From: a virus
Taxonomy: Duplodnaviria; Caudoviricetes
Virus record (IMG/VR): IMGVR_UViG_2563367173_000002
Span: 32,001-96,000 of that record
DNA length: 64,000 nt
Direction: 5' to 3' (one strand)
Part shown: positions 6,951-59,618 of the stretch, piece after piece
Numbering within the stretch: the stretch's first letter is position 1
How the letters are laid out: every line of letters starts with the position of its first letter
Made by a program: the position numbers and the translations under genes
The notes under the pieces: generated by a model
Database searches by the model: none
What the model was told of the DNA's origin: nothing
What the model saw: the letters and a program-made list of their open reading frames with translations, nothing else

Positions 6951-7127
6951 ATGAAAAACGAATTAAGTTCCGTATTAAATAATGGTATCTTATCAAATCC
7001 TGGAGATGAACTCTACGCACGTATTACCCCCACTGGTCGCAAAGTAATAAAGGTTAAAAAGAATGGGAAAAAAGCTAGTGCGACACAATACAAAAGTGGG
7101 AAAACCGTATATACATTTAGTTCGTAA
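6951..7127 (+). CDS. small basic protein (58 aa), moron
   Basis: Not in the ORF track. Own promoter, SD AAGGAGGT, MKNELSSVLNNGILSNPGDELYARITPTGRKVIKVKK..., own terminator. Confidence 0.75.
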   Translation: MKNELSSVLNNGILSNPGDELYARITPTGRKVIKVKKNGKKASATQYKSGKTVYTFSS

Positions 7128-7147
7128 TTAACAGAATATCTTTATTG

Positions 7148-7182
7148 TTCCTCTAAGCAGTTACGGCTTAGAGGAATTTTTT
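7148..7182 (+). terminator. intrinsic terminator
   Basis: TTCCTCTAAGC-loop-GCTTAGAGGAA followed by a T tract. Confidence 0.8.
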
Positions 7183-7210
7183 ATCCTTTGAAACTCTGGA
7201 TTTATTGTCC

Positions 7211-7690
7211 TTACATATAATCCTTGATCCTATTTTCATTTGAATCAATTAAATATAAATCTTCCAATTTACCATCTTTAGGTAGTGTCCAACTATATCT
7301 GCATGGACGCTCATCAAAAAACTTTTTGATTCTTCTAATAACAATTTCTTCCCAGTACTCATTTAAGGGTTTTACCAACTGAATTGCTAATGAATTACAC
7401 TCATCTGTCATATGATAAAATGTCATCTGTTCCCAATCATCAACATCTTGATATGTTTCCATTAAATATTCGTCTTTTAACTCATAATCATCATAGTAAT
7501 CTTTTCTTTTAGAACTGAATTCCTCTTCCCAAAACAAATCCATTTCATAATCGCCATGAAAATTACCCATTTCCATCTGGACATTATCAAGCGTTCCCAA
7601 GGCATAACTTATTAGTTCTCTTTCAAAATTTCCCGTATAACTGTTTGTCTTTATAATTAATTCATAATTCGGAATCTGTTGCACTCTCAT
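7211..7690 (-). CDS. hypothetical phage protein
   Basis: 159-aa acidic ORF with SD GGAGG. Confidence 0.65.
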   Translation of the reverse strand: MRVQQIPNYELIIKTNSYTGNFERELISYALGTLDNVQMEMGNFHGDYEMDLFWEEEFSSKRKDYYDDYELKDEYLMETYQDVDDWEQMTFYHMTDECNSLAIQLVKPLNEYWEEIVIRRIKKFFDERPCRYSWTLPKDGKLEDLYLIDSNENRIKDYM

Positions 7691-7711
7691 AATTTTTCCT
7701 CCAATATCTGA

Positions 7712-8950
7712 TCATTCAAAATCCATAAATTTCATATCAAAATATTTCTTTGCCAACTCAGGAATATCTTTTTCAACTTGTTTCAAATATCTCATTTCGG
7801 AACATTCTTTTTGGTGCCTTGACTGTTGATATTTAACAAATTCTTTATATGACTTCTTCTTAAATGCAGATGGTTGATTACACCATGCAGCTAGATTTAT
7901 ATATGTACCTCTATATGGAGATTCTTCATATCGGTTAAATCGCATTATATATGGCAAGCACTGATATCTCATCAACAATTCGATCCGTTTCCATAGATCC
8001 CACAAATCTTGCTTCCAAAATTCGTCATCCCATTTATCTTCTCTATCAAACCCACAAAATGTATAAAACTTTGGAATCTTATCTGTGTACTTTCTTAATA
8101 ACTGCAACTTCTTCTCTATCAGGTCATAATCTGCCACATTATCAAACGCAAATATATAATCCCCATCATACTTACTTTTAAAAAGAACCTCACATTTTTC
8201 ATCCGTAAGAAGTCTCTCATCCATGCCTTGCTTATACTGAAATGGTTTTCCAGTAGATTGTAACTCTTCAAAAATCTCTCGCCAATGTGGACTTCCTAGA
8301 ATATTATCATCCAGTAAGCATATTTTCTTTCTTGACGGATCAAGAAATTCACTTAATGGACTATGACAATCTACTTTTTTATAATTACGGTTTACACAAA
8401 ACTCACACTGTCTGAAGCAGCCTCTTGTGGTATAGCCCAAGCTATAGTCAAGATAATACTTAAAATCATTTCTCTTTTTACCACTCTCAATCTGCTCATT
8501 TACCCAATCATCATACAAATGGTAATCTGGCATATGGTGTTCTACTTCTTCAGGAAGTTTAGGAGCCTTGTCATAAAAGAATCCTGTACCTCCATATTCT
8601 ACATTAGATAGAGTCAATAGGTCTTCATCTATTGGCGTATCAGTAAACACTTTAGAAATAAAAACCTTATCAAGCTTTATATTTTCTTCTCTGAAACATG
8701 GTGACATTTTTTCACATAAAATTTTTGAATTTAATTCATCGTGCTTCTTAAACCTCTTTTCATATTCTTCAAGTGCTGATTGATAATCAATCCAAATTGA
8801 TTCATCATAATATAAATCCTTATAATCTGTTATTAGTTTTACATCATGTCCAAACTCTTTGTAATAGCCTGATAACTTCATACAAACTAAATTAGGAAAC
8901 CTATGCTTGTCTCTGCCTATCAGATCTGCATCTATAATTGCTATTTTCAA
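7712..8950 (-). CDS. radical SAM protein (phage type)
   Basis: TTRGCFRQCEFC CxxxCxxC motif, FPNLVCMKLS N-terminus, LLDDN. Confidence 0.8.
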   Translation of the reverse strand: MKIAIIDADLIGRDKHRFPNLVCMKLSGYYKEFGHDVKLITDYKDLYYDESIWIDYQSALEEYEKRFKKHDELNSKILCEKMSPCFREENIKLDKVFISKVFTDTPIDEDLLTLSNVEYGGTGFFYDKAPKLPEEVEHHMPDYHLYDDWVNEQIESGKKRNDFKYYLDYSLGYTTRGCFRQCEFCVNRNYKKVDCHSPLSEFLDPSRKKICLLDDNILGSPHWREIFEELQSTGKPFQYKQGMDERLLTDEKCEVLFKSKYDGDYIFAFDNVADYDLIEKKLQLLRKYTDKIPKFYTFCGFDREDKWDDEFWKQDLWDLWKRIELLMRYQCLPYIMRFNRYEESPYRGTYINLAAWCNQPSAFKKKSYKEFVKYQQSRHQKECSEMRYLKQVEKDIPELAKKYFDMKFMDFE

Positions 8951-16962: not shown

Positions 16963-18090
16963 TTAATAATCCAATGAATCGAAATTTTCATTTCCATATT
17001 TACTTACTTCTATTTTCTTTTCGTTCATCTCTTTGCAAAATTCTTTGTATTTTTTTGTATACTCATAACTATCGCCAAAGATGTTATTCACGGCTATAAA
17101 TAATTTTGGTTCATATTCCTTTGTTATTTTCAATTCATACTCAAAATCTCTCCCATATGGGCAACAACAGCATCCAGTACGTTTTAATCCATATTCCGTG
17201 TAACATAAACTATGTGTAATCTCATAATGTTTATCATATTCTTCTTTATCAGAATTCTTATACCAGAATAAAGGTCTGTAATTGTCATAAGTATTCTTCT
17301 TGCTTTTACCATTTTCATCAAAGCAACTTTTATACGCCGAAGATCTGGCACCACCTTCTGATTTTCTAATCCCAACTATATTTAAATCATATTCAAAATC
17401 AGATAATAATTTATGGGCTACATCCTTTTTAGCATACTTACAACATGTATTAGAAATTTTAAATTCTGGAGGATTTTCTATAATAAATTCTTTCAACCAC
17501 TTATTATATGAAATGTTAAATTTACTACCTTTCTTATACTTATTGCACCACCACAATAAAGCTGAAACACATCCTCTGTAATATTTCCCTTTATATTCCT
17601 TTACACCGTTCTTAAATTTCCCATTCTTAAAAGCATTCTCATTTGATATTTCAATACAGTACTTTTTAATTAATAAGTCAAAATCTTCACTTTCCCATTT
17701 GAAATTATATTTTTGGAGTCTTTGCATGAATTCACTGACTTGTTTTGAAAGAAATGGTTGTCCATATTGTTTACATGTTAATGGAATAGATTTTATAGCT
17801 TTGTATGGCATAATATTAATACCATATTTTTCTTCTAAATATTTCAAATGATTTTTTGTTGCTTGATATTCTAAACCAGTATCAAACCACACATATTCAA
17901 TTTTATTATCTTTATCACATTTCGTACAAATATCTAACATCACATCACTATCAGATCCTCCAGATATTGAACATACTATTTTTTCATATTTACTATTATT
18001 AATCCTTGACCATGCTCTTATTAAGTTGTCTCCAATAGTTTGATTTTGAGGACAGTTCTCTAACAGTCCTGTTAAAGTTTTTTCACCCAA
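16963..18090 (-). CDS. PAPS reductase family (PP-loop) protein
   Basis: SISGGSDSD, DTGLE, CC, GIRKSEGGAR, RTGCCCCP. Confidence 0.85.
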   Translation of the reverse strand: MGEKTLTGLLENCPQNQTIGDNLIRAWSRINNSKYEKIVCSISGGSDSDVMLDICTKCDKDNKIEYVWFDTGLEYQATKNHLKYLEEKYGINIMPYKAIKSIPLTCKQYGQPFLSKQVSEFMQRLQKYNFKWESEDFDLLIKKYCIEISNENAFKNGKFKNGVKEYKGKYYRGCVSALLWWCNKYKKGSKFNISYNKWLKEFIIENPPEFKISNTCCKYAKKDVAHKLLSDFEYDLNIVGIRKSEGGARSSAYKSCFDENGKSKKNTYDNYRPLFWYKNSDKEEYDKHYEITHSLCYTEYGLKRTGCCCCPYGRDFEYELKITKEYEPKLFIAVNNIFGDSYEYTKKYKEFCKEMNEKKIEVSKYGNENFDSLDY

Positions 18091-18290
18091 TATGTATCTT
18101 TCCTCACGTAATTTAATCTACGTTTACGTGAGGTAAAGCCATACTTTATTCACGAATTATATTCGTATTCGTGGGTGTCTTTTTACATCACTACCACATA
18201 ACTTTTTCGATTATTTATTATCAACGTGCCACAATAAATAATCTTGTGACAACCTTTATCATCTAAAGGTTATAAATACTTTGGGTGATG
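18091..18290 (-). promoter_or_regulatory. structured 5' leader with four hairpins, the last covering the SD
   Basis: Stems such as CCTCACGTAA/TTACGTGAGG, CACGAAT/ATTCGTG, GATTATTTATT/AATAAATAATC, AACCTTTA/TAAAGGTT. Confidence 0.55.
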
Positions 18291-18292
18291 GT

Positions 18293-18649
18293 TTAACCAA
18301 TCTGTAGTACAGCATCTCCTACAAATTCTACATTAAGAACTTTTATATTTTGGATAGATTCTTCGTATTCTGATTCATAATCCCTGGCAAACATATCTGC
18401 CCACATATCATCATATTCTTGTTCACTAACATTGTTTAGGACCATGTATTTTTCAGATTCTTTGTAATTTCCATTTTTCGTCTCATATCCTACAAAAACT
18501 TTATAAACTGGCAATTCCAATTTTGATTTGATAAAGTTCCTTGGATGAATATTCATCAACTTTTTCTTTAAACTATCATCAAAAATCTCAAACACATCAA
18601 TTCCTGTCCTTATTACACACCATTCAAAAAATTTACTTGGATGTAGCAC
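18293..18649 (-). CDS. hypothetical phage protein
   Basis: 118-aa ORF, SD GGAGGTG. Confidence 0.6.
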   Translation of the reverse strand: MLHPSKFFEWCVIRTGIDVFEIFDDSLKKKLMNIHPRNFIKSKLELPVYKVFVGYETKNGNYKESEKYMVLNNVSEQEYDDMWADMFARDYESEYEESIQNIKVLNVEFVGDAVLQIG

Positions 18650-18676
18650 TACTTTTCACCTCCCCCTCTTCATATT

Positions 18677-19591
18677 TCATTTTGAAATTGGCTTTTCCTT
18701 CTTAAATACTATTTCTTTTACACATTCCATGATTCTATTCTTGCCTATATTAAAAATCTCTTCATTATTCTCAATACAGATACATTTCCTACCTGTATTA
18801 ATAACAGCTACTCCAGTTGTCATACTGCCAGCAGTTGAATCAAGCACAGTATCACTCTCATTAGTATAAGTTTTAATAATTTCTTCTACTAACGCTACTG
18901 GCTTTTGAGTTGGAGTTAATGCACACTTTTGGGTATCCTTGGCGAATAGCCAAACTGATTTAGGAAATCTCTCTGTACTGTCATATGTATGATTTTTGAT
19001 TTCGTTGTAATTTGTTGACTGTTTACTATTTCTCTTATGTGATGCTGTACTAACTTTTCTGATATGCCCACTTGTCTTCTGCGGATTATATGTTGGCTGC
19101 TTCTTATAAAAAACGCACATATCCTCATGATTTCTCATTGGCATCCGATTAGCATTTTGAAATCCTGTAGGCTGAGTCTTCTCCCAAACGAGATTATACT
19201 TCCACATTTCTCGGTTACTTTCCATAAGATCAGCAGTAAACATACCGTTTGCAAATAAAATTATCGCTCCATTATCTTTGATAATTCTTTTATACTGAGT
19301 CCATAACCCTGTAGATTTATTTTCTTCAAAGTATATAAGTGCGCCGTTATAATCTGCTTCTCCTTGTTGATAACACCACAGAAGAAAATCATCTCTATAA
19401 AATATTCTTGGTTTTTTTCTAACTTCTATAGTTATGTAGTCATTAAATGGAATTACTATATCCCAAGAATTCCTGGCGGTCTGCCCGAAAGGGAGATCCG
19501 TAATAATTGCATCTATGGATTTATCAGGAATATTATTCATCAATTCCAGACAATCACCTTGCCATAATTCATAATTACTATTTTCAAATAT
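18677..19591 (-). CDS. site-specific DNA methyltransferase, beta class (likely N6-A); probable non-AUG start
   Basis: LWQGDCLELM lies upstream of the track start; TDLPFG, PTQKP, DSTAGSMTT. Confidence 0.85.
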   Translation of the reverse strand: MFENSNYELWQGDCLELMNNIPDKSIDAIITDLPFGQTARNSWDIVIPFNDYITIEVRKKPRIFYRDDFLLWCYQQGEADYNGALIYFEENKSTGLWTQYKRIIKDNGAIILFANGMFTADLMESNREMWKYNLVWEKTQPTGFQNANRMPMRNHEDMCVFYKKQPTYNPQKTSGHIRKVSTASHKRNSKQSTNYNEIKNHTYDSTERFPKSVWLFAKDTQKCALTPTQKPVALVEEIIKTYTNESDTVLDSTAGSMTTGVAVINTGRKCICIENNEEIFNIGKNRIMECVKEIVFKKEKPISK

Positions 19592-19832: not shown

Positions 19833-20423
19833 CTACGCCCTTTTATCTGCAATACATTTAATCTGATTCTCAATCTGTCGATACGTATCATTTGCAGTTA
19901 AAATACTTAATACAGCACTGGAAAGCATATTCTTTGTTGAAGAATCAAAGGTGTCCTTCATAGTTTTATTAATATCTTTCCTAATACCATCCATAAATTT
20001 GTCCAAATCAGCTTTAATCAAATCATCTACATTAAATGATCTATTAATATATTCTTCAAAAGATACTTGCTCAAAATCATCAGAATATGAAGAAGTTCTG
20101 CCTTTTTTCTTTGCTTTCAAAGTTTTAGACTCCAGACGATCTTTTAATTCCTTTTTAATATACTGCTCTACTGTATATTCTTTTTGCTCCTCATCATCCC
20201 AATAGCTATTACCACCAACCTTGATTACAGTATTTTTAATATACTCATCTACAAATTTCTGAAAGTTTGATGATACTGCATTATTTATTTCTTTCTTTGC
20301 CAACTCTTCAATTGTCTTATTTACGCTCTTTTTTACTTGCTCTTTAATAATTGTTTCAATATTATTTTCTGTAGTCTCTTTTACCAAAGATTCTAAATTT
20401 TCTAAATCAATTGTTACTTTCAA
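19833..20423 (-). CDS. hypothetical phage protein
   Basis: 196-aa ORF, SD AAGGAGG. Confidence 0.7.
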   Translation of the reverse strand: MKVTIDLENLESLVKETTENNIETIIKEQVKKSVNKTIEELAKKEINNAVSSNFQKFVDEYIKNTVIKVGGNSYWDDEEQKEYTVEQYIKKELKDRLESKTLKAKKKGRTSSYSDDFEQVSFEEYINRSFNVDDLIKADLDKFMDGIRKDINKTMKDTFDSSTKNMLSSAVLSILTANDTYRQIENQIKCIADKRA

Positions 20424-20456
20424 AATATTCCTCCTTAAATTTTGCTTTGAAACAGA

Positions 20457-21179
20457 TTATTTATTGTCTAGCCAATCTTTATATTGTCGAATAAGTTCTG
20501 TATACAATTCTTCGTCATTCATGTTCTCCATATCTTTAACTGAAATGAATCCAGTATTATCACACTTTCTACCTGGCATGTTATCTAAAGAACGTAGATA
20601 AGTAAATGATTCATTTCCAATTCCAACAAATTGAACAAACATATTATATTCAGATAATTCTCTTATAATTTTATCTGTTTCACTCTGATCTGAATTCGCT
20701 CCATCTGTAATAAAAATTATAAATGCAGGTATATCATTTAAACTAGTTTTGTTATAATATTTGACTATATCTCTCAATACTGGCGCATATTCTGTTCCTC
20801 CCATACACATGCCAGATTTGACCATAATATTTTTAACATAATCTTCATAATTATTAGTAGTTACTGATTTTAGTTTCTTTTTTTCGTTAGAAAACAACCA
20901 TGATTCTAATTCACCATTATCATCAAACCGTAAAGCAATTGGAAGCAGTCTTGTAATAGTTCTTTGTATAGCCCCACTACAAAATAGTTTATCCATACTT
21001 CCAGAATAATCCATAGCAAGTGCTACTTTCGCGATATGCTTGGATAAATTTACTTTACCTTCTTTTGATAAATTCACCAAAACCTTATCTAAATTATCTT
21101 TTGATTTTGACAAATTGATTATTACACTCTTTTGAGCATTGTCAACTTCCTTGTTGAAAAACTTTCCTAATAATCCCAT
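20457..21179 (-). CDS. vWA domain protein (TerF-associated type)
   Basis: MIDAS DYSGSM, GGTEYA, FITDG, FVQFVGIG, LDNM; start probably MGLLGKFF. Confidence 0.8.
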   Translation of the reverse strand: MGLLGKFFNKEVDNAQKSVIINLSKSKDNLDKVLVNLSKEGKVNLSKHIAKVALAMDYSGSMDKLFCSGAIQRTITRLLPIALRFDDNGELESWLFSNEKKKLKSVTTNNYEDYVKNIMVKSGMCMGGTEYAPVLRDIVKYYNKTSLNDIPAFIIFITDGANSDQSETDKIIRELSEYNMFVQFVGIGNESFTYLRSLDNMPGRKCDNTGFISVKDMENMNDEELYTELIRQYKDWLDNK

Positions 21180-21297
21180 AATAAGAATCCTTTCTGATGT
21201 ATTTATTTTATAATATCTATAATAATAAAGTGCCAAATTTAATAAGGTCTGACACAATGACCTCTAAAAATAGCTTTAAAATCTCGATTTCATGTCT

Positions 21298-21345
21298 ATA
21301 CCATATATAGCAATCGCTTGTATAGTCAAGCACCATATATGGTAT
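21298..21345. promoter_or_regulatory. tandem NrdR-box-like operators overlapping a minus-strand promoter
   Basis: ATACCATATATAGCAA and GCACCATATATGGTAT, starts 32 bp apart; TTGACT on the minus strand at 21324-21329. Confidence 0.6.
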
Positions 21346-21349
21346 ATTT

Positions 21350-22252
21350 TTATTGTTCAGACACTATCTTTTTGAACATTTCATCTACAGAATCCAATAA
21401 ATCATATCTCCTATTAAAATCAGCAGTAGAACTTCTTGCAAATTTCTGTTCAACCATATCAATGTAATAAGTCATTGAACCGTCATCCCCCATATAGAAT
21501 TCATCCCACTCTTCCTGACTCATTAATCGCTGAACTTCAAGCTGTTCAATAGCAAGATTATCAAAACTCACTACTTTGAAACGCTCAATGATTCCACCAA
21601 GATTTTCTTTCAGCCACATTTGCTTAATAATGATATTTTCGTGATCCTCACTATACCATTCACCACCACGCCTTAACTGCTTATATCCAAGGATAAGCAT
21701 CTTCAAATTCTTATCAGATAACATTTCTACGTCTGAAGGCTTGAGAATACCGTTAATCACATGTATAACTGCATTTGGATATTGCTGAATTAGTGATATA
21801 AATTCATCTGTTGGATTTACAAGTGACACACCAAGACCATATATCAATTTTTCATCAACCAACTTCTTAATCAATTCCTGTTTCTGCTCAAAGTGTTGCT
21901 GGTTTACGGTCATATTCACAATGACTTTTCTATCCTTTAGCTTATGTAAAAACGGAATCAAATCTGGATGACTTGTTGCATCACCACCACCAAGCGCAAC
22001 CTCCTGATATGGATGCAAAGTCTCGATAAACTTTTGATTCAGAATATCACCATGCTTACCATTTTTTGTGCTACCTTCATGGCAGAATTTGCAGCCCATA
22101 TCACAATAATTACTTATCTTGATATCCATATTCTCTGCAAACTCAGGAATAAATTCATCATCTTCTGTCTCTCTTATTTTGGTTCCGTCTGAAAATATGC
22201 GTGTACGCATATTCCCATTCTTATAAATTCCCAACAGATTCATTTTTATCAT
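21350..22252 (-). CDS. radical SAM protein
   Basis: NYCDMGCKFCHE, ALGGGD, NMTVN. Confidence 0.88.
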   Translation of the reverse strand: MIKMNLLGIYKNGNMRTRIFSDGTKIRETEDDEFIPEFAENMDIKISNYCDMGCKFCHEGSTKNGKHGDILNQKFIETLHPYQEVALGGGDATSHPDLIPFLHKLKDRKVIVNMTVNQQHFEQKQELIKKLVDEKLIYGLGVSLVNPTDEFISLIQQYPNAVIHVINGILKPSDVEMLSDKNLKMLILGYKQLRRGGEWYSEDHENIIIKQMWLKENLGGIIERFKVVSFDNLAIEQLEVQRLMSQEEWDEFYMGDDGSMTYYIDMVEQKFARSSTADFNRRYDLLDSVDEMFKKIVSEQ

Positions 22253-22262
22253 CCTTTCTTAA

Positions 22263-22676
22263 TTAGCAATAACCATATTCACCAAATGCAACAATTTTAT
22301 CACCATTTTTGGAAGTGTATCTCTGTACAAATGTTTCTAAATCGCCATCATGCATATATTGGTCATACGTCTTTGCGTCTTCATCAATAATGTCATTCTC
22401 TTTTGCATATTTAGTATAATATTTCTGTTTTGTATCCTCAGACAAATCATTCCAATCTTTCTGAAAATCGTCTTTATTTTCTTCATAATCTTCTTGTGCC
22501 ATTTTTTTATCATGTTCACTTAATTTTGTTGCAGATATAAAATTTTCTTCTCCATATTCATGAAATAATACTTCTCCTCTTTTCCAAGCCTCAAATTCCT
22601 CTTCACTGCACATAGTAAGTGAATGTGTGCTGCTACTATTTGTTTCAAATACTCCACGCCTTATTTGTCTCTTCAT
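22263..22676 (-). CDS. FETNSSS-motif protein 3
   Basis: MKRQIRRGVFETNSSSTHSL after SD AAGGAGG. Confidence 0.75.
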   Translation of the reverse strand: MKRQIRRGVFETNSSSTHSLTMCSEEEFEAWKRGEVLFHEYGEENFISATKLSEHDKKMAQEDYEENKDDFQKDWNDLSEDTKQKYYTKYAKENDIIDEDAKTYDQYMHDGDLETFVQRYTSKNGDKIVAFGEYGYC

Positions 22677-22692
22677 AAAATAAATTTCCTCC

Positions 22693-23139
22693 TTAATCAC
22701 AATCTGTTTTTAATGACACATACTTATTGAATACAAAATTGATAACCGCATCCTCATCATAAACATTGACAATTTCAATATTGCCACAGGGCCGCGACTG
22801 ATGATCAATCTCTGGTTCCTGTTCTCCTAAAATCTTAATTCCTGTCGCACCTGTATATTTACAAATAGCATCCTGAATTTCTCTAAATTCCCACTTGTCA
22901 TAAATATCAGATATATCATATCCTGACAGATAATATAAACAAGTAATCAGATAGGAAAGTTTGTCATATTGTGATGTATAAATACGTTTGTCTTTTCCAA
23001 ACTGTCCAAAATCAATTTCTATTTCTCCATCCTTATTCAGTTTGAATTCACTCGGTTCCTTGCCCTCATTAGAAATAACCAAACTGTGAACCGAAGACGA
23101 ATTTGTTTCAAATACACCTTTTCTAATCTTCCTTTTCAT
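22693..23139 (-). CDS. FETNSSS-motif protein 2
   Basis: MKRKIRKGVFETNSSSVHSL after SD GGAGG. Confidence 0.75.
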   Translation of the reverse strand: MKRKIRKGVFETNSSSVHSLVISNEGKEPSEFKLNKDGEIEIDFGQFGKDKRIYTSQYDKLSYLITCLYYLSGYDISDIYDKWEFREIQDAICKYTGATGIKILGEQEPEIDHQSRPCGNIEIVNVYDEDAVINFVFNKYVSLKTDCD

Positions 23140-23149
23140 TGATCCTCCC

Positions 23150-23863
23150 TTAATCCTCTCTTGGATATTCATGAACAATCATATCCATATTTACTAGCCC
23201 TGTTTGCTTCATATTGTCCCAATAGCAATATTCATCACCGTCTTGAATGACGACATATTTCTTATTTATAAGATATTCTTCAAGAGAAATACCTTCATGC
23301 TCTAAAAATCCACTTAGAATATCTTCATCAACATATCCTGTGCATGGTATGTCATAATGCCACCAGCCATTTGAAGATTTCCAATACTCAATTTCAAAAC
23401 CCCAATCCTTTTCTTTCTGTGATAAATATTCTTTTAGTTCATCTTCTGTCTTACCATACTTCTGATAATAGTCATCGTTTTTATGTTCTTCATCATTTTT
23501 ATCTACAATACTATCACTGTCCATTGGCAGTTTGATCTTTTTAAGACCTGGTATATATTTCAATGCAAGTGCAACGAGTTCTTTATAAACATCATCATTA
23601 TAGTCATGAACCAACGAAGCACACGCATACAACCATTTATCTGTAAATGTTCCCAAAGCCCTAAATGGACTCCTACCAAATTCCAAATCGTGATCCCAAG
23701 GCTCCCAAACACAAGATTCCTCGCCTGTATCTTCATCTTTACATAAATATATTCCGTCTAAAATTTCTTCTGGAGTATATTTATCATCTCTCTTCATAAC
23801 TGTTAAACTATGCATAGAACTCGAATTTGTTTCAAAAACATTTCTTCTAATCTGTCTCTTCAT
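23150..23863 (-). CDS. FETNSSS-motif protein 1
   Basis: MKRQIRRNVFETNSSSMHSL after SD AAGGAG. Confidence 0.75.
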   Translation of the reverse strand: MKRQIRRNVFETNSSSMHSLTVMKRDDKYTPEEILDGIYLCKDEDTGEESCVWEPWDHDLEFGRSPFRALGTFTDKWLYACASLVHDYNDDVYKELVALALKYIPGLKKIKLPMDSDSIVDKNDEEHKNDDYYQKYGKTEDELKEYLSQKEKDWGFEIEYWKSSNGWWHYDIPCTGYVDEDILSGFLEHEGISLEEYLINKKYVVIQDGDEYCYWDNMKQTGLVNMDMIVHEYPRED

Positions 23864-24752
23864 ACTTCTCCTTTTTCTCAAAAATCAGCTTATCCATATT
23901 AAATCCAGCAGCTCCCTTATGACCTCCACCACCATATTTCTTTGCAATGTTAGAAACATCCACAGTTTTTGAATACATACTATATGTCCATGTACCATTC
24001 CTTCCATTGAATGAAAATGGCATTAAAATATCATATGAATTGTCATCCACAGATTTAAACCAATCACTACCAGCAAGTCCAACATTCATTGCATACACTT
24101 TATATCCCTCAAATTCTGTTTCAAAACCTTTGGACTCGCAGTATTCTTTTGCAAAACTATCACGATACTTGATGATTACTTTTCTTTCTTCAATATATTT
24201 ATTCTCTGCATCATCATCTAAAAGGTTATACCAAATCTCGTTATCTGGGCTTTTATCGTATGCATCAAATCCCATATGAAAATATCTTGTATCATCACCA
24301 TATTCAAAAGCCCATACATCATAATCAGCGATATATTTTGTAAACATAGGTGCATCTTTTGTCATAGAAATATTAAATTTTTTCGGATTGCCACCTCCTC
24401 TTTCAGTCATATGATGTAACCAACAATATGTAAGCATACAACCGGCTATCCCGTCATATCTAATTCCACGAATAGGAATTTCAAAATCCGTATATCTTTC
24501 TATTGCTGATTTATGATGATCAATCCAGGTTACATCTTTTGTTATTTCTAACAGTTTTCTCATTTCGTCTGGCATAATTGAATAGTCAACAATATATACC
24601 TGCTCATTAGGATTTATCTTGTCAAAAGAAAATTCCATTCCATAATTGATAGGAATAAATTCTGACTCATATCCATCATATACTCCTGCACTTAAATACA
24701 CCCAAGATGCAGCACATTTCCCATCATCATCTACATGATAAAAACATTTCAA
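23847..24752 (-). CDS. DHH/DHHA1 phosphoesterase (NrnB-like)
   Basis: YHVDDDG, IVDYS, WIDHH, DYDVW, GGGGHKGAAGF. Confidence 0.88.
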   Translation of the reverse strand: MKCFYHVDDDGKCAASWVYLSAGVYDGYESEFIPINYGMEFSFDKINPNEQVYIVDYSIMPDEMRKLLEITKDVTWIDHHKSAIERYTDFEIPIRGIRYDGIAGCMLTYCWLHHMTERGGGNPKKFNISMTKDAPMFTKYIADYDVWAFEYGDDTRYFHMGFDAYDKSPDNEIWYNLLDDDAENKYIEERKVIIKYRDSFAKEYCESKGFETEFEGYKVYAMNVGLAGSDWFKSVDDNSYDILMPFSFNGRNGTWTYSMYSKTVDVSNIAKKYGGGGHKGAAGFNMDKLIFEKKEKYEETD

Positions 24753-24767
24753 ATTATCAAACCCTCC

Positions 24768-26135
24768 TTAAAATTTTATCCAACCATCTCTAACACCTGT
24801 CATCCAATAAACCAAATCATCTTTATTATTTTCTAATTCTCCATCTATAACACGTTTCAGTATCTCATTTAACCAATACCCAATATCTTTACCTTCTTTG
24901 AGTTTCATCACCTCTTTTACATCGTTACCATTAACCGCTAAATCCTTTAATGAGAAACAAGATTTCTCAGATAATATTTCTTCAAGAATATTTTCTATAT
25001 TATTTATTTTCTCTATCCGAGATTCTTCATAATCCGGTTTTTGTCCTTTAATATCCGCTTTCCTGACTTCTAACAACCACCTAAACTGCTTTTCACCGAT
25101 TTTATTAAGCCATCTCTTAACGTACTTATTTCCTACCTCAAAAGTCGCATCATGATAATAAACAAGTTCTACTACATTATTTCTCGTTTCATTATCAAAC
25201 CTAAGACGTTTCATAATAGAGTCTGTAATTTCAGCACTTACCTTTCCGTGACCTTTAAAATGTCTAATACCATCTTCTCCATCTTGGTAGGAATATGGTT
25301 TGCCGAAATCATGAAAGAAAACAGCAAGTCTAACCACTAAATCATCAGACTCACATTTCTCTATTGCATGGACTGTATGATCAAATACATCATATGCATG
25401 ATATGGATTATTTTGTTGGAAACCTATCAAGTCTTTTAATTCTGGGATAAATAAGGAAAATACGTTTGGATATAAAACTAATTCAACACAGAATTGTTCA
25501 GAAGCAACTATTTTACAAAATTCACTATTAATTCTCTCAATTGAGATGTTCTTTAGTCTGTCATATTGTCGTTCTATTTCAAACATTGTTTCTGGGAGTC
25601 CTGCAAAACCTAGTTGTGCTTCAAATCTTATTGCTCTCAATATCCTCAAAGCGTCTTCGTTGAACCTGTCTTCTGCGGAGCCAACGCATCGAATCTTTTT
25701 ATATTTGATATCCTCCATGCCATTAAACGGATCAATTAAACCAGTTTTAGGATTGTATGCCATAGCATTAATCGTAAAATCTCTTCTCCGTAAATCTTCA
25801 ACCAGATTCTTTGTAAATGTTACATTGTCAGGTCTACGATTATCAGAATAATCTCCATCAATCCGATAAGTTGTAACTTCAAATGGTTCTTTATTTATCA
25901 GAATCGTTACTGTACCGTGTTGCAAACCAGTAGGAATAATTTCTTCATCAGGAAACGCTTTTAATATCTCATCTGGTGTGGCAGATGTGCAAATATCATA
26001 GTCGTGAGGTTTTCTTCCCAATACGCTATCTCTTACACATCCACCCACCATATATACTTCATGTCCGCATTTCTCTAATTCCTGTATGATGTAATTTACT
26101 GGTGCCGGAACTTCTACATTAATTCTTTTCATCAA
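24768..26135 (-). CDS. cca: CCA tRNA nucleotidyltransferase with HD domain
   Basis: VGGCVRD, DYD, EVTTYR, EDLRRRDFTINAMAY, RFNEDALRILRAIRF, HDFGK. Confidence 0.9.
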   Translation of the reverse strand: MMKRINVEVPAPVNYIIQELEKCGHEVYMVGGCVRDSVLGRKPHDYDICTSATPDEILKAFPDEEIIPTGLQHGTVTILINKEPFEVTTYRIDGDYSDNRRPDNVTFTKNLVEDLRRRDFTINAMAYNPKTGLIDPFNGMEDIKYKKIRCVGSAEDRFNEDALRILRAIRFEAQLGFAGLPETMFEIERQYDRLKNISIERINSEFCKIVASEQFCVELVLYPNVFSLFIPELKDLIGFQQNNPYHAYDVFDHTVHAIEKCESDDLVVRLAVFFHDFGKPYSYQDGEDGIRHFKGHGKVSAEITDSIMKRLRFDNETRNNVVELVYYHDATFEVGNKYVKRWLNKIGEKQFRWLLEVRKADIKGQKPDYEESRIEKINNIENILEEILSEKSCFSLKDLAVNGNDVKEVMKLKEGKDIGYWLNEILKRVIDGELENNKDDLVYWMTGVRDGWIKF

Positions 26136-27075
26136 TATTTACCTCAATTTGTGGAGTTTCAATAAACTTAGCCAATAATCCTTCGTGGTAAAAAATTTTG
26201 TCATTTTCAGTAACATCTTCTCCAAGAAACTTTCTTAAAACAAATGGTAACGCATAATTATCTAAACATTTAAACTCTATCTCTGTATTATCATTCTCAT
26301 CAATAATTTCTTTATAATATCCATCTGTCTTAACAATTTTATGAAGTATAAACAATTCTGTTTTTAACGGAACAGGCATATCTTTCATACCATTGCGAAT
26401 TGCAAACACGATTCTTTCTTGCTTATTTTTGTCCATATCAGACACATCAACCACAATTTCATCATTGGAAAAGAATACAACACGATCCATTGAAATAAAC
26501 ACTTCTGTTAAATATGTCAATGCACCATCCATAAGGTATTTTTCGTATGTGATATGTCTCTTAGGATTACAATTACCCAAAATAACCTGACGAATATATT
26601 TACTATTGATTATGTGCTGATTACCTGTATATCTCCCAATAAACTCTTCCCAAGATTCTGCTCCACCAAAAATATCTGAATTGTAATGATGTAAAGAAGA
26701 AAAATTAGCTTTTCTCATATCAATGCTGATAAAACATTTACCATCATTTGAAGACTTAAATATATCTTTATTTGGAAGATTTTTATGTGTAACAGCATAC
26801 TTGTTCATATCCTCTTCATTAAACTTATGATATGCTTCTGTATTTTTAATATCCAAAATAGCAGCATCTTTTACACGATTATATTCTTCAAAATAATCCT
26901 GTTCACAATTATATTTGGATAGTTCGCTTAAAAAGATATCCCACTTTTCAAGTGTCCCATAAAACTTATCATATAGTGCCAATATATCAGTAAAATATGG
27001 TTCCTGGAATATCCTGATTGGAATATTACAATCTTTACAGAACCTCTCTTTTGCTCTTGTAGATACTTCCATCAT
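26119..27075 (-). CDS. hypothetical protein with polymerase-palm-like motifs
   Basis: SIDMRKANF and FSNDEIV; function is inference. Confidence 0.6.
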   Translation of the reverse strand: MMEVSTRAKERFCKDCNIPIRIFQEPYFTDILALYDKFYGTLEKWDIFLSELSKYNCEQDYFEEYNRVKDAAILDIKNTEAYHKFNEEDMNKYAVTHKNLPNKDIFKSSNDGKCFISIDMRKANFSSLHHYNSDIFGGAESWEEFIGRYTGNQHIINSKYIRQVILGNCNPKRHITYEKYLMDGALTYLTEVFISMDRVVFFSNDEIVVDVSDMDKNKQERIVFAIRNGMKDMPVPLKTELFILHKIVKTDGYYKEIIDENDNTEIEFKCLDNYALPFVLRKFLGEDVTENDKIFYHEGLLAKFIETPQIEVNIDEKN

Positions 27076-28100
27076 ACCTCTCCCTTCACAATTCTCTCAT
27101 TCACATACATCTTAAATTCATTAATTCTTTTATGATCTGGCACATTAGGAAGAGATGTATTGTTTTTAGCATAATCAAATCTCTTCTCATATTCATTCAA
27201 CAAATCATAAAATTCAGTAATCGGTTGTTTATTTTCATCTAAAAACTCACCGTTGCGAATACTCATAAGTAAGTCATGTTCATCCGTCCTATATGTGATG
27301 ATTTCTTCTTTTTCAAGAATATCAATACACATCATATAAAGACGAATCAAGTGAGCCATATGCTTCCCCAACTTGTCATGACTGATCGCTTTCTCGTTTC
27401 GTTTGTCAATTTTGTTATAACTGCTTACAATCGCCTTCATTTCATTCCACATACCAGTCCAATCTCTCAAAGGATAATGTTTCAAACATACGTCCATAAA
27501 AATCTCGCTATCATATCCTTCTTGGACTGCTGTATCAATATATAACTTTACATCACTCTCATCATGTGGATAATATCTGTTTTTGAAATCATATTTTGCG
27601 TTATTGATACTTTTTAAAATATACGCTTCGTTCTGTGCCTGACCAACTAATCTTGCGGCTTTATTTTCCATCCTACGGAGTTGGCTACCGGCATATCCAC
27701 CAAATGTATGAATACAGATTTTAGATAGAAACATTTTTCTATTTTCCAAAAGTTCTCTTCCAACACTTGATAAATGTAGATAATGTTCTGGCTTGCAGCC
27801 CAAAATTTCCACTGTGTTAGGATTGTTGGATGTAAGTAATTGAATCATTTTATTAAATGAATATATCGTAGTGTCAGTATCTGCATTCACGACCTGCTCA
27901 AAATCTGTTCCTAACAGAATGTCTTTCTTAGAATTTAAGGCGATACCTCGCACATCTAAGTCAGATCCTTCTTTATCCATTCCATAAGCGTGACTTCCTC
28001 CAAGAGTTAAGAGAATGATGTTATCACCTAAATTCTTATCTTTTCTCAGGAAGTCATATTCACTTGTTTTCAATTTCTCTTTAATCTGTTCAATATTCAT
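27072..28100 (-). CDS. Pol-beta superfamily nucleotidyltransferase
   Basis: GGSHAYG...SDLDVRG, NNPNTVE, KHMAHLIRL. Confidence 0.85.
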   Translation of the reverse strand: MNIEQIKEKLKTSEYDFLRKDKNLGDNIILLTLGGSHAYGMDKEGSDLDVRGIALNSKKDILLGTDFEQVVNADTDTTIYSFNKMIQLLTSNNPNTVEILGCKPEHYLHLSSVGRELLENRKMFLSKICIHTFGGYAGSQLRRMENKAARLVGQAQNEAYILKSINNAKYDFKNRYYPHDESDVKLYIDTAVQEGYDSEIFMDVCLKHYPLRDWTGMWNEMKAIVSSYNKIDKRNEKAISHDKLGKHMAHLIRLYMMCIDILEKEEIITYRTDEHDLLMSIRNGEFLDENKQPITEFYDLLNEYEKRFDYAKNNTSLPNVPDHKRINEFKMYVNERIVKGEV

Positions 28101-28117
28101 TCTCTCAATCCTCTCTT

Positions 28118-28477
28118 CTATCTACATTCTTCAAATACAATAATCTTAAACACAGGTTTAAAATGTGGATTTTTTGTAATCACTCCCAGTTCTTGAAGTT
28201 TTACCAATTCTGCTTTCACCTTACCAAAACATTTTTCAATATCAGACACATCAAACATTTCTGTATCAAAACTATACTCATTACCAGAAGCCAAAACATA
28301 TCCAAAATATAAATGTGAACCACTCATCTGATCATCGAAAAATTGAATCTCGCCTTTGCACTGGTTGCAAATATAATCTTCTCCTTCATCTGACCACTTC
28401 CAATCTTTAAATTTATCTGTTTCGTTGCCAGTCAAATCATAACCAGCTATTACATAATAATTACTTTCCATGCTCAT
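28118..28477 (-). CDS. hypothetical phage protein
   Basis: Start probably MSME; the track ORF extends into a junction motif. Confidence 0.6.
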   Translation of the reverse strand: MSMESNYYVIAGYDLTGNETDKFKDWKWSDEGEDYICNQCKGEIQFFDDQMSGSHLYFGYVLASGNEYSFDTEMFDVSDIEKCFGKVKAELVKLQELGVITKNPHFKPVFKIIVFEECR

Positions 28478-28517
28478 AACTTCTTTTTCTCCTCCTATGA
28501 AATGCAAGTTTTAAGAC

Positions 28518-28856
28518 TCAATATGCTCTATCATCAATAGATTCTATAGATTTAATTTCATCAAGTATAGAACTTCCTATAATGTATAGTTTTTTAGAAA
28601 CTATCTTGCTAATTCTACTTATAAAATCCTCCCAACGCTCATACTTTTCTAACCATACTGTCATACTTACATTTCCATTTATATGTTGACATGCATATGT
28701 TCCTTTTGTATATTCTTCTCCATAATAGTAGAAATATAGTTCATATTTATGTAAATGCTTACTAATAAACCAAGGAACAAGCGAAGCGATTGTCACATAT
28801 TTATTCCCAATTTTAATTTGGAAATCAGTGTTACTTCCATTTTTTACAGTTTTCAA
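28518..28856 (-). CDS. hypothetical protein
   Basis: 112-aa ORF, SD GAGG. Confidence 0.55.
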   Translation of the reverse strand: MKTVKNGSNTDFQIKIGNKYVTIASLVPWFISKHLHKYELYFYYYGEEYTKGTYACQHINGNVSMTVWLEKYERWEDFISRISKIVSKKLYIIGSSILDEIKSIESIDDRAY

Positions 28857-55220: not shown

Positions 55221-56261
55221 TTAGCGGCTTATTGTTTCTAATCCATCTAATAATTCGTTATATAATTTTATTAGTATAGTGGCGTCAGTTTCGTCTTTTA
55301 AGTCCAGAATCTTTCCAAATGCACAAAGCATATAATTTCTCAATTCTGAATTGTCATATACGCTGACAGGATTTTTCACTAAAAACGGAACTTCTTCACC
55401 ATCCATAACATACTTCTTATACTTCTGACCATAATCATCTAAATATTCCATTTCTAATTTAGCAGTTTCACCTAAATATTTGTTTGTCATTTTCTCCGAC
55501 GAATGATTATATAATTCCATTAGTACAGATTTTGCTACAGGATCGTTTGGATGCAGTTCCAATAGCATTTTTCCCATTCCCCGGCGCATGGAATGAGAAC
55601 GAATTTCATAATCAAGACATTCACCAGCTTTTATAAGTGCTTTCCTATATCCTTCTTCCGATATAACTTTACCTCTATGAGTACCATGTAACTGTTTAAA
55701 AATTGGTTCATCATAATCATATTTGAAATTAATACTCTTTTCATTCTCGAGAAAAATTCTAAATGCTTCTTGAACAGCGATATTAACAAAAAGTTCTTTT
55801 GATTTTCCAGTTTTTTGTTCGCCGGGGATTCTCTGATCGTCTTCATCAAGTTTCTTTATATTCCAAAACTTTTTCATACTTCCATTTTTATAGAAGAAAT
55901 CTGACCATAAAGCTTGTCGCAGATCAGATATACGCCTACCTGTATTGGCGTTCAATGTGAAAAGTAGATAGAAATTCCATTGATTGTGTTCAATAAAGTA
56001 ATTTTGAATTTTTTTCATATCTTCAAAATTTTCAATAGCTGTCTTGATAGATTTCGTACCACGCTGTTTGTTTATTACTTTACCATTTTTATCAAGGTAT
56101 TTTCGTTCGCCATCTACTTCAATAAAATATTTCCCTTTCATATTTGTTAAGATTGGATAATCATCTCCACAATATTCACATGTTTTTCTTTCTGTTTTAT
56201 GTGGTTCTTCTGTATATGTAACATTATTTAATGCTATAGCTTCCATAATCATTACCCCCAT
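55221..56261 (-). CDS. tyrosine recombinase / integrase
   Basis: TGRRISDL (R), EQKTGK (K), HSMRR (HxxR), YNHSS...TNKY (H, Y). Confidence 0.92.
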   Translation of the reverse strand: MGVMIMEAIALNNVTYTEEPHKTERKTCEYCGDDYPILTNMKGKYFIEVDGERKYLDKNGKVINKQRGTKSIKTAIENFEDMKKIQNYFIEHNQWNFYLLFTLNANTGRRISDLRQALWSDFFYKNGSMKKFWNIKKLDEDDQRIPGEQKTGKSKELFVNIAVQEAFRIFLENEKSINFKYDYDEPIFKQLHGTHRGKVISEEGYRKALIKAGECLDYEIRSHSMRRGMGKMLLELHPNDPVAKSVLMELYNHSSEKMTNKYLGETAKLEMEYLDDYGQKYKKYVMDGEEVPFLVKNPVSVYDNSELRNYMLCAFGKILDLKDETDATILIKLYNELLDGLETISR

Positions 56262-56647
56262 TTTATTGTGTTTTGATCTTACTGTTATTAATTCTCTTTA
56301 TTGTTTATCAAAGAAAATGATATTTTATCGTCTAATTTGATAAACAATAAATTAAAATACTGAACCTAGCAACTGATTTTACAGTTTGAATATTTTCCCG
56401 TCCGATTAGATGCAAGTAGCTGGGAAGCTAGATTGGCAAGGTCGTAACTCATATACACGCCTGTATAAACACTATTCGGATTAAATAACCCTAGTTATAT
56501 AAGTTGCTAAAGGTTTATTTTTCTTTCCTTTAACTGTCTTTATTATAGCATTACGTTTTTCTAATGTCAACACATTTTCATAATATTTTATTATATTTCC
56601 GTGATGTATATAGACAAAAGTAAAGACATACCTCTTATAGCATGTCT

Positions 56648-56869
56648 TTATTCCACTCTGCAACCATTTGAAAATTCAAAACCAGAAAAATATTTTGCTC
56701 CTAGTTGCTCAGCAAATCGCTCTAATTCTTCCTGAGTAAATTTACCGCGTTTTAATCTCTGTGAAAAAGCAGATTGTGAATAACCGCATCTCCGACCTAA
56801 CTCAGTAACCGTTATCCCCGCCATTGCACAAGCTGATTCAATCTTTTGCTTAATAGTGATTTTCCTCAC
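56648..56869 (-). CDS. Xre-family HTH regulator
   Basis: GITVTELGRRCGYSQSAFSQRLKRGKFT. Confidence 0.8.
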   Translation of the reverse strand: MRKITIKQKIESACAMAGITVTELGRRCGYSQSAFSQRLKRGKFTQEELERFAEQLGAKYFSGFEFSNGCRVE

Positions 56870-56951
56870 CTCCCTATTTAGTCAAGCCTTTTTTCCTTGA
56901 AAATCAAGGATTTTTCGATATACTATCAATAAATATCTCAGAAGAAAGAGC

Positions 56952-58519
56952 CATTGGTATGGGCATTTCTCTGTATCTGGTACGAAAATAGCTGGTTCTG
57001 GGTACACGAAGTAAAACGTCTTGCTTTTCCGTTCTACATGGCCTTGTGTATACCCATCCATCTATGGCAGCGCACCTCCCGTGTCTACCAGGATCTCCTC
57101 CATTTCTGTAGGGTCCTAACTTCCTTCGTCCCGCCTGTCCATATCCAGGGTGTCAGCTTAGCTCCTTGTCAGGGTCATGCCCTATGGTGATCATTCCTGC
57201 CGACTACTGGCTCATTCTTTTTCTTAAGTCTTACTGACCTCTTCTGTATGTTCCACAAACCAGCACCTTGTGGTGGACGTTTTCCCGGCCCGTTTCTCAT
57301 ACATTTCAGCTTTCCTGACACAGCTGAATTCAGCTCTCAGATCTGTTTTCTAAAGGCTCAATTCAACTGTGACAGGGGTATTACATGTTTTCTCTCTGCT
57401 TCTTATGCTGCCTGCATCTGCGGCCTCTTGATGTCTCTCATCAGTTTCTCTGCATCATAATCTACACCTTTTGTAAGGATTACGTAGAATACCCTTATAA
57501 CCTTGCAGGCTACAGCAACCACTGACTGCATCTTTTTCAGCGGATTTTCCTTCCGGCCCCGATAATACTCATGTATTTCTCGGAACTGTTCATTCTTTCC
57601 AATCAGCGATATCGCTGCCTCATAAAGCACATATCTCAGTCGCTTCCGTCCACGGTAACTGATCCGGCTTTCTCCGTTATGCTTGCCGGACTCGTTCGCC
57701 ACGATTGCATATCCCGCCAGTTTCTGCAGTTGTTTGGGATTATCAAAACGTCCGATGTCCCCCACTTCTGCTATAAAACCGCTGACTGTAATCAGACCGA
57801 TCCCTTTGATCGCCATCAGTTTATCAATATATGGGATCTCCTTTAGTTTTTCTTCTATACTCCAAAGCAGTTCCTCTAGCCTTGACGCATATACCTCCAG
57901 GTCATTCAGCAGATTTTTTAATTCGATTCTTGCTGCTTCCGTCCCTTCCTTACTCCCAATGCTATGTTCTGCGGCTGATACCAGGGCCTTTGCCCTCTTC
58001 ATTCCAGCGCCTCTCAGCTTTGCATCTCTCCAGATCTGGTTCACCCCTTCTACCCCGAGCTTTACGATATCCTCCGGCAACGGAAATTCCTTCAGCACCA
58101 TTCTGCCGCTGTCCTGCAGGAATTTCCCTAACGCAAACCAGTAATGTCCAGTCGGCTCCATTCCGGGAATCACAGCAGTTTTGCCATACTTTTCTGAGAG
58201 ATCTTCCATCCATGCTTTCAATGTCAGGAATCCCGCTTCCGTATTACTGAATTCTAACGGTTTTTTGCTATACTCATAATTCCTCCAGTCGAAAGCTCTG
58301 GCATAATGAGTTTCACTTCCGACATCAATACCAACTATCAAAGTTTTTTCAGTAATGGATGCAATTTTTGCGTTCTGTGTGTTATAATTCATTTCAGATA
58401 CCTCTCTGTTCAATAAGATTTTTACTAACCTCCAAAGTCAGTAATCTTATTTTACTCTGAGGTATTTTTTTCTCAACCTTCTTTCTTGGAATTCCCTATA
58501 CTTGAATTATACAGGAAGC
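56952..58519 (-). mobile_element. IS110-family element (ends approximate)
   Basis: Sharp GC rise, transposase gene, about 450-nt non-coding region 3' of the gene. Confidence 0.8.
57403..58392 (-). pseudogene. IS110 transposase with in-frame internal deletion
   Basis: GIDVG and GMEPTGHYW are present, then QDSG joins RMVLKE with no VNP or KxDxxD motif; C-terminal IKGIG...ESG...GRKRLR intact. Confidence 0.8.
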
Positions 58520-58521
58520 TC

Positions 58522-58716: not shown

Positions 58717-58847
58717 ATGATTACGCTCCTTTTTCCTTTTCTATTATTATATCAGATTATTACCCATTTTCAAGACTCAAATCATACAATAAGATGATAC
58801 CATTTGAACGAATATCATCTGCAAAAAACTCTATCCGCTTAAACATC

Positions 58848-59616: not shown

Positions 59617-59618
59617 TG

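Follow-up and report, generated by a model that had tools for sequence, protein, structure and literature searches.

We describe here a protein superfamily and its enzyme partner in a stretch of phage DNA from the IMG/VR virus record IMGVR_UViG_2563367173_000002 (Duplodnaviria; Caudoviricetes). The stretch, which we call the window, covers 64,000 nucleotides (positions 32,001 to 96,000) of the 110.5 kb record and is AT-rich, with ~30% G+C. Three consecutive genes of the window, P1, P2 and P3, encode members of a very large, unnamed superfamily with an N-terminal Thr-Asn-Ser-Ser-Ser (TNSSS) loop, and the next gene encodes a radical S-adenosylmethionine (SAM) enzyme. A TNSSS-motif protein and a dedicated, minimal radical SAM enzyme probably make up a conserved two-part system, which is sometimes encoded as one polypeptide. 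The evidence is adjacency across deep divergence together with gene fusion, which is about the strongest genomic evidence there is for a functional partnership.

The gene block and its N-terminal motif

The minus strand carries nearly all of the long open reading frames (ORFs) of the window, including four tightly packed genes at 23863-21350. These are, in order, P1 (23150..23863, 237 aa from its ATG), P2 (22693..23139, 148 aa), P3 (22263..22676, 137 aa) and the radical SAM enzyme (21350..22252, 300 aa). P1 and P2 are long-form, or A-type, proteins, with P1 in family 0 of our clustering, and P3 is a short-form, or B-type, protein in family 3 of supercluster B (see below). The genes are separated by 10-16 nt, the start of P1 is overlapped by the upstream DHH gene, and P1, P2 and P3 are each preceded by a Shine-Dalgarno-like site (GGAG, GGGAGG and AGGAGG). 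The proteins begin MKRQIRRNVFETNSSSMHSL (P1), MKRKIRKGVFETNSSSVHSL (P2) and MKRQIRRGVFETNSSSTHSL (P3), giving a common start of 20 residues, MKRxIRxxVFETNSSSxHSL. We refer to this start as the tag, or motif I; a six-frame scan and the DNA place its 20 codons on the minus strand at 23804..23863 in P1, 23080..23139 in P2 and 22617..22676 in P3. An earlier note on this DNA had described three tandem genes of these lengths with a common N-terminal motif and a radical SAM gene next to them, and the ORFs and the DNA agree with that description.

The core motif has exactly three matches in the six-frame scan of the window and none in 200 composition-preserving shuffles of it, and these three are also the only copies in the whole record. 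Since the Ser-Ser-Ser codons vary between the copies (TCG AGT TCT, TCG TCT TCG and AGT AGC AGC), it is the peptide that is conserved by selection and not a DNA repeat.

The tag belongs to a large family. A profile of 44 positions, built from 52 diverse tags, was compared with 1.84 billion representatives clustered at 50% identity and matched 7,332 clusters at E<=1e-3, 1,180 of them at E<=1e-10; no Pfam or NCBIfam model covers the domain. The profile begins at residue 1 in nearly all of the best 150 of the 7,332 clusters, and in 265 of the 369 occurrences of the motif the distance from the Met to F10 is 9 residues. Alignments of P1 and P2 relatives gathered by full-length homology, which are unbiased by the regular expression used for the motif, show R6, F10, E11, N13, S14, S15 and H18 to be invariant. 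In a logo of 264 tags, positions 10-18 are biased by the collecting pattern; R6, which is unaffected, is present in 263. The N-terminal signature of the superfamily can be written R-x-x-[V/G]-[F/L]-[E/A]-T-N-S-S-S-x-H-S.

At E<=1e-3, P1 has 721 full-length relatives and P2 has 422 relatives. Among the 120 listed for each, lengths are similar and the proteins are nameless or called ‘hypothetical protein’; some of the relatives come from contigs of up to ~218 kb. Both families are conserved along their whole length, beyond the tag, and in P2 five motifs can be recognised (I, FETNSSSVHS; II, DFGQFG; III, QYDKLSYL; IV, IDHQS; V, LKTDCD). P3 is laid out differently, with the tag followed by CSxEEFxxWxxGE, an acidic and Lys-rich stretch and a C-terminal ..IVAFGEYGYC. 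By eye, the FGEYGYC at its C-terminus could be matched with A-type motif II; the hhalign probability for this match is 1-8% only, and we treat it as unproven.

Compared directly, the profiles of the P1 and P2 families align over their first 27 columns and nothing more, and P3 has no significant similarity to P1 or P2 past the tag. The first 22 residues were then cut from the tagged proteins of the loci described below and the families were compared using hhalign. Supercluster A unites the families of P1 and P2 with one of 194-aa proteins and two others through links of 91-99%; with the tag removed, the P2 family is linked to family 6 at 99.1%, and the P1 family to family 6 at 96.5% and to family 7 at 91%. 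Supercluster B unites the P3 family with three others (98-99.6%). Between A and B no hhalign link was found after tag removal; B-type proteins keep the tag and have at most a faint trace of motif II, and P3 is thus a short form that retains the tag. The claim that P1, P2 and P3 share only the motif therefore stands for P3 and for the direct comparison of P1 with P2, but P1 and P2 are related through intermediate families. The picture of a basic leader on unrelated proteins had to be replaced, as the motif is the first of several in a conserved domain of ~150 aa in P1 and P2. Two database proteins, P0241 (288 aa) and P0242 (395 aa), hold A+B and A+A tagged units, respectively, in one frame. Both could be genuine tandem fusions, but the gene calls may also have read through a recoded stop.

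Existing resources say little about these proteins. P1 has no Pfam, NCBIfam, PHROG or PADLOC match, and P2 and P3 have neither a Pfam or NCBIfam match above threshold nor a PADLOC match. A PHROG family labelled without a function, phrog_28997 (165 positions), is matched over 5-74 by P2 (6.8e-8), over 5-41 by P3 (1.3e-4), not at all by P1, and over most of its length by 194-aa A-type proteins (4.6e-23). In the ESM Atlas, P1 leads to unnamed viral clusters only.

The bodies of the tagged proteins appear to be variable. Contigs of the RNA library X17 carry a related strain in which the P3 body (22263-22609) is swapped for 321 other letters and the P1 body (23154-23819) is skipped or replaced; the tag-coding ends and the flanking genes still match. 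This suggests a cassette-like turnover of bodies between conserved tags.

Linkage and fusion to the radical SAM enzyme

The enzyme encoded after P3 is of the single-cluster type. Its cluster-binding motif, C50-x3-C54-x2-C57 (CxxxCxxC; 22082..22105 on the minus strand, from the translation), contains the only cysteines of the protein, and these three are invariant in 27/27 aligned homologues, where no other Cys is. A second ATG at 22243 suits the homologues better, so that the protein is probably 297 aa long. It matches phrog_16999 at 2.4e-48, a family that PHROGs labels ‘Fe-S oxidoreductase’ only, and passes the Pfam Radical_SAM model (PF04055) with 32.4 bits against a gathering cut-off of 29.5 (32.7 bits in a scan of its own genome). 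All of its NCBIfam matches are far below their cut-offs, and a search of PDB sequences with its family profile gave generic matches to the cluster region only (best E 0.028).

A few enzyme homologues deviate from this pattern. Those at L043, L060 and L062 lack an intact CxxxCxxC, and at L038 two ORFs share the match, and one of these ORFs has no such motif; frameshifts, decay or another genetic code are possible causes. The record of the window also holds, outside the window, a second and weaker Radical_SAM match on the minus strand (G000:C1:4052-4288; 26.1 bits, below the cut-off), which sits within a 673-aa open frame.

Viral contigs were scanned with the P2 alignment; 141 places were confirmed, and we retained 80 loci from them. 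All 80 carry between one and six tagged ORFs in tandem on one strand, and 70 have a homologue of the window enzyme (phmmer E<=1e-3) within +/-6 kb, mostly directly adjacent. These 70 enzymes form 37, 23 and 9 clusters at 90, 70 and 50% identity, respectively. When the whole records of the other ten loci were searched, an enzyme was found elsewhere on the record in four; CheckV puts the completeness of the remaining six records at 7-76%, and three of their arrays run up to a contig end. Motif proteins are thus not commonly found without a radical SAM neighbour (6/80, all of them on incomplete records). Together with the natural fusions described below, the 70 loci linked within 6 kb and the four linked on the record bear out the tie to this enzyme clade that the earlier note had proposed. 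In the reverse direction, a scan with the enzyme alignment confirmed 527 places, and the best 80 loci, examined in turn, all have tagged ORFs (1-3 each); every enzyme in this set is at least 74% identical to that of the window, so the reverse direction was tested among close relatives only. ORFs were also clustered from a pool of 106 sequences, in which 18 kb of the window was combined with the loci from viral contigs, named phages and microbes. The tagged family recurs in 86 of these and the enzyme family in 96, the next family reaches 14, and no third conserved component was found.

Among 83 classified loci the commonest orders of tagged genes are AB (28 loci) and AAB (16 loci), the latter as in the window. 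A-type and B-type genes occur together in most of the 83, and a single A-type gene is the only one in 12. One could imagine from this co-occurrence that P1, P2 and P3 assemble through a shared N-terminal strand-loop-strand and that the enzyme is merely co-regulated. The modelled tag of a fusion protein (see below), with its two strands, could pair between subunits, and P0241 and P0242 look like an A+B and an A+A unit fused in tandem. We find this assembly improbable, as it leaves the fusion of the domain to the enzyme, and the fused genes that stand alone, unexplained; moreover, the tandem fusions may be read-through gene calls, and 12 loci have no more than a single A-type gene.

The pairing extends to named phages. 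By tblastn, the window enzyme has matches in 15 Lak megaphages (~50% identity), in Microcystis phages of the Ma-LMM01 group (40%) and, at 26.7% identity and E 3e-14, in Salmonella phage Arash; weak matches (E 1e-7) were obtained in Thermus phiYS40-type phages and Rhodothermus phage RM378. Directly behind the enzyme gene of Lak-A2 come five tagged ORFs, and in Ma-LMM01 the A-type tagged protein gp130, which matches phrog_28997 end to end (5e-115), is encoded two genes from the enzyme, gp128.

In phage Arash the two parts are joined. Its gp146c (476 aa, annotated ‘methyltransferase’) consists of a tagged domain, with the motifs ..GFATNSSSSHS.., FGYGW.., GYIDHES.. and ILGGNDN, followed by a radical SAM domain in the same polypeptide. 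A search with gp146c gave 726 matches, and 120/120 of those listed are 435-570 aa long and cover 92-100% of the query; the few that are named come from Methylobacterium and from metagenome-assembled genomes (MAGs) of Thermoanaerobaculia and Promethearchaeota. Among 32 aligned fusions, G9, A11, T12, N13, S14, S15, S16, H18 and S19 of motif I are invariant, as are G39 and W40 (II), K51 (III), D99, H100 and S102 (IV), G130, G131, N132, D133 and N134 (V) and, C-terminal to motifs I-V, the three cluster cysteines. The radical SAM half matches phrog_16999 at 1.2e-29, which places it in the same clade as the window enzyme, and this half is all that Pfam and NCBIfam cover; the N-terminal domain gave no usable named match in the ESM Atlas.

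We compared the fused N-terminal domain with the split families using hhalign, with the tags removed on both sides. It is linked to the 194-aa family at 97.9% (E 4.6e-13, 104 columns), to the P2 family at 95.7% (E 1e-8, 97 columns) and to the P1 family at 90.2% (48 columns). There is no link to the B families (at most 1.3%, with 0.4% for the P3 family). On these profile comparisons, P1 and P2 are stand-alone homologues of a domain that many other phage and microbial proteins carry N-terminally to a radical SAM enzyme of the phrog_16999 clade.

Fused genes are found well beyond phages. One genome per species was scanned for 185,579 microbial species, and 37 loci scattered across unrelated phyla were returned; 14 have a fused ORF and 5 have a tagged ORF without an in-frame radical SAM motif, some of the latter cut by contig ends. 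None of the 14 fused-gene contigs has a second tagged ORF. An all-against-all comparison of 27 chosen flanking ORFs from 11 contigs with the fused gene or the split form revealed no family common to different contigs, the sole match being between two ORFs of one contig. The Arash fusion protein, used as a query against viral contigs, had no match. In one microbial locus, L180 on a Deinococcus lacus contig (~6956-8937), the order of the parts seems to be reversed relative to the fusions: the radical SAM match (7001-7813) comes first and is followed, at 7925, by a tag motif in the FATNSSS form that fusions typically have; the next stop comes 169 residues later.

These fusions bear on a further reading of the tag, as a virion or capsid targeting sequence without relation to the enzyme. 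The internal proteins of phage T4 are diverged tandem proteins of the virion that share a short N-terminal capsid-targeting sequence, which the prohead protease cleaves, and the proteins studied here are likewise diverged and share a short N-terminus that begins with MK and has a hydrophobic-x-E pattern. Unlike in T4, however, the shared sequence is part of a domain that is tied or fused to a radical SAM enzyme. The tight linkage, the presence of the fused form on microbial MAG contigs and the conservation that runs well beyond the Glu all argue against a sorting signal, as does the main text of the Arash paper, where gp146 goes unmentioned. We regard this explanation as extremely unlikely.

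Structure predictions were made for both forms. The AlphaFold model of P2 has a predicted local distance difference test (pLDDT) score of 88.5, with 43 and 62 for the two 10-residue blocks of residues 1-20; the model, confident from about residue 21, has no fold match in the PDB. The model of the fusion protein P0391 has a mean pLDDT of 84.2 and a predicted template modelling score of 0.68, and residues 1-20 again score low (47 and 43). In this model the tag forms a strand (3-7), a loop and a second strand (17-22). Besides the invariant loops 100-104 and 134-136, the segment 144-148 also falls below 50. The solved structures nearest to its radical SAM half are the peptide maturases SuiB and SkfB. 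The alignment with SuiB begins at model residue 149, before the radical SAM core, and covers only part of the SuiB N-terminal domain.

A possible client or partner of the enzyme

Drawing on sequence comparison, predicted structures and analogy, we tentatively favour, at somewhat less than an even chance, the reading that the radical SAM enzyme modifies the TNSSS loop of the tagged proteins, which would then be its clients. We favour it because the loop is the one clearly shared element of all forms, including the B-type; because it lies at a free N-terminus; because it is the part that the models cannot fix; and because the nearest solved enzymes modify peptides. The exposed N-terminal loop, rich in Thr, Asn and Ser, would enter the active site of the enzyme, where a 5'-deoxyadenosyl radical would abstract hydrogen from a loop residue and a modification would be installed. 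This could mature the client, for example if a reactive residue arose next to motifs IV and V, with their conserved acidic and His residues. One enzyme might serve several diverged clients, because all of them retain the same loop, and in the fused proteins maturation would take place in cis.

Several points weigh against the client reading. An enzyme fused to its own one-time substrate is unusual; fusions more commonly join subunits or steps of a single pathway. The invariant polar motifs of the domain in fusions (FGW, K, DHxS and GGNDN) suit a client no better than a partner that binds a ligand or is catalytic. With three cysteines and no other invariant in the 27 homologues, the window enzyme lacks the auxiliary clusters on which sulfatase maturases and most SPASM enzymes that modify proteins rely, and no PqqD-like recognition element was detected by Pfam (E<=1) in the window proteins. 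Position 11 of the tag is Glu in the split phage lineage and Ala in 32/32 fusions. Finally, nucleic-acid enzymes neighbour the genes in several phages.

Much of this evidence can be read in another way, namely that the TNSSS domain works alongside the enzyme, as a substrate-binding or catalytic subunit, and that the target of both is a third molecule (for instance a nucleotide, tRNA, DNA or a host protein). A ligand or metal site would then be formed by motifs I, IV and V, extra paralogues would retarget or extend the chemistry, and P3 would be a regulatory or scaffold variant. Such a partner subunit is possible, and on balance we doubt it. It would explain the fusions and the invariant polar motifs of the domain at least as well as the client reading does: the fusion is a common architecture, to judge from the 120 listed relatives that span it; the fused gene stands alone in 14 microbial contigs, with no family common to the flanking ORFs compared; and T, N, S, H, W, K, D and N residues are invariant across the five motifs of the domain. 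The pLDDT of the fusion model also falls below 50 exactly at the invariant loops 11-17, 100-104 and 134-136, as would be expected of a site that is ordered by its ligand. Nucleic-acid enzymes are encoded nearby in the window (CCA, NTase, DHH), in Ma-LMM01 (primase, resolvase) and in Arash (polymerase pieces, RNA ligase). On the other side, B-type proteins lack motifs III-V and are nevertheless conserved and usually found beside the enzyme, the His of motif IV is lost in P1, and the nearest solved structures are peptide maturases. Nor did Pfam and NCBIfam find a nucleic-acid-binding domain or a known nucleotide-binding family in the members.

The client reading can be taken further, in a form that we think unlikely to hold in all of its parts. 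A single-cluster radical SAM enzyme would turn a residue of the TNSSSxH loop into a reactive group (an aldehyde, a dehydro residue, a cross-link or a stable radical), building an active site of a new fold with the Asp, His and Asn motifs; the paralogues would share one maturase, and the system would be widespread, mostly in large phages. Speculatively, motifs I-V combine Ser, His, Arg, Lys, Asp and Asn in a way reminiscent of the residues around formylglycine in sulfatases, which have an unrelated fold.

An enzyme that modifies tagged clients would differ from known systems in several respects. The closest are the SPASM/twitch maturases (anSME, SuiB, SkfB, PqqE), whose core fold resembles the radical SAM half of the fusion model. 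However, SPASM/twitch maturases such as SuiB, SkfB, CteB and anSME bind one or two auxiliary Fe-S clusters in a Cys-rich domain at the C-terminus, whereas the window enzyme has three cysteines and no such clusters, its partners are folded proteins of 137-237 aa rather than short peptides, and it scores 12-28 bits with the maturase NCBIfam models against cut-offs of 300-650. The likeness to sulfatase maturases and to those of ribosomally synthesized and post-translationally modified peptides (RiPPs), which the earlier note had drawn, is weakened by the missing auxiliary-cluster cysteines and by the failure of Pfam (E<=1) to detect a RiPP recognition element. Type I sulfatases, the clients of anaerobic sulfatase maturases (anSME), carry the motif (C/S)-x-(P/A)-x-R, which is absent from P1-P3. 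Glycyl-radical enzymes have a conserved Gly in a C-terminal RVxG-type loop; the clients in PflA/PFL, NrdG/NrdD and GrcA differ in this from the N-terminal, Ser/Thr-rich loop seen here. Tag position 8 is Gly in 171 of 264 tags, and scores with glycyl-radical activase families are far below their cut-offs. The match to the viperin-like pVip is partial (profile positions 5-89 of 257), the viperin_w_prok model gives 17.3 bits against a cut-off of 180, and we know of no tagged partner domain in viperins.

A RiPP-like variant of the maturation idea would have a basic N-terminal peptide recruit the enzyme and then be cleaved off. It draws on the position of the tag at the extreme N-terminus and on the resemblance of the fusion model to SuiB and SkfB. 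RiPP precursors, however, are short, with a leader and a core but no further conserved fold, whereas P1 and P2 belong to families that are conserved over their full length and P2 is modelled as a well-folded protein (pLDDT 88.5). The 137-237 aa length of the proteins, the further motifs of the domain to which the tag belongs, and the lack of a recurrent protease or recognition element in the neighbourhood all speak against a cleaved leader, and the most conserved residues lie at or beyond any plausible cut. We therefore consider such a leader very improbable.

A radical SAM enzyme with a dedicated protein partner is already known as a kind of system; what is new here is the domain of the partner and its motif, together with the minimal enzyme and the way the partner has multiplied into paralogues. 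A full-text search of the literature found no paper naming the motif or its pairing with a radical SAM enzyme: matches to ‘TNSSS’ and ‘ETNSS’ are clinical abbreviations, and ‘ETNSSS’ and ‘FETNSS’ gave none. The term ‘radical SAM’ was not found in the Lak-phage papers listed by a full-text search. In its accessible portion, the transcriptome paper on Ma-LMM01 does not name gp128-gp130, and classes gp134, four genes upstream of the gp130/gp128 region, as a middle gene. The system occurs in gut phages, in Lak megaphages and in two cultured phages (gp128/gp130 of Ma-LMM01 and gp146c of Arash), and the cultured phages make the question directly approachable at the bench. Whether the tagged proteins prove to be clients or partners, the outcome would be a new entry among radical SAM systems and the annotation of thousands of phage ‘hypothetical proteins’.

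Surrounding genes and transcription

Upstream of P1, on the minus strand, lie genes for a nucleotidyltransferase (NTase; 27072..28100, phrog_388), a 318-aa protein (26119..27075) without an NCBIfam or PHROG match, a CCA-adding enzyme (24768..26135, PRK13299 at 3.7e-89) and the DHH protein (23847..24752, phrog_4771). Directly after the radical SAM gene, a vWA-TerF-like protein is encoded (20457..21257, minus strand; PF10138, 4e-58). In the 80 P2-seeded loci, homologues of these neighbours are rare (NTase in 9, CCA in 3, the vWA and 318-aa proteins in 1 each and DHH in 0). The linkage of the tagged genes to the NTase, CCA and DHH genes, to which the earlier note had pointed, is thus local and not conserved, and the four upstream genes (23847..28100) are context of this phage that lies outside the conserved module.

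Since no terminator-like site was found on the minus strand in 20300-28600, and since the genes for the NTase, the 318-aa protein, CCA, DHH, P1, P2, P3 and the radical SAM enzyme abut or overlap, a single transcript is plausible from the sequence. The stretch is present in mouse-gut DNA and RNA libraries. Contigs that include it come from four RNA libraries of three studies, and one of these contigs covers it from end to end; in contigs, carried-over DNA is indistinguishable from RNA.

A few genes downstream, the region 16963-19543 (minus strand) encodes a PP-loop protein resembling 3'-phosphoadenosine-5'-phosphosulfate (PAPS) reductase (phrog_424, 6.3e-29) and a DNA methyltransferase (phrog_67, 1.7e-57). 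Toward the end of the window, at 56001-64000, the G+C fraction climbs from ~0.30 to 0.39, and the final 2 kb reach 0.49.

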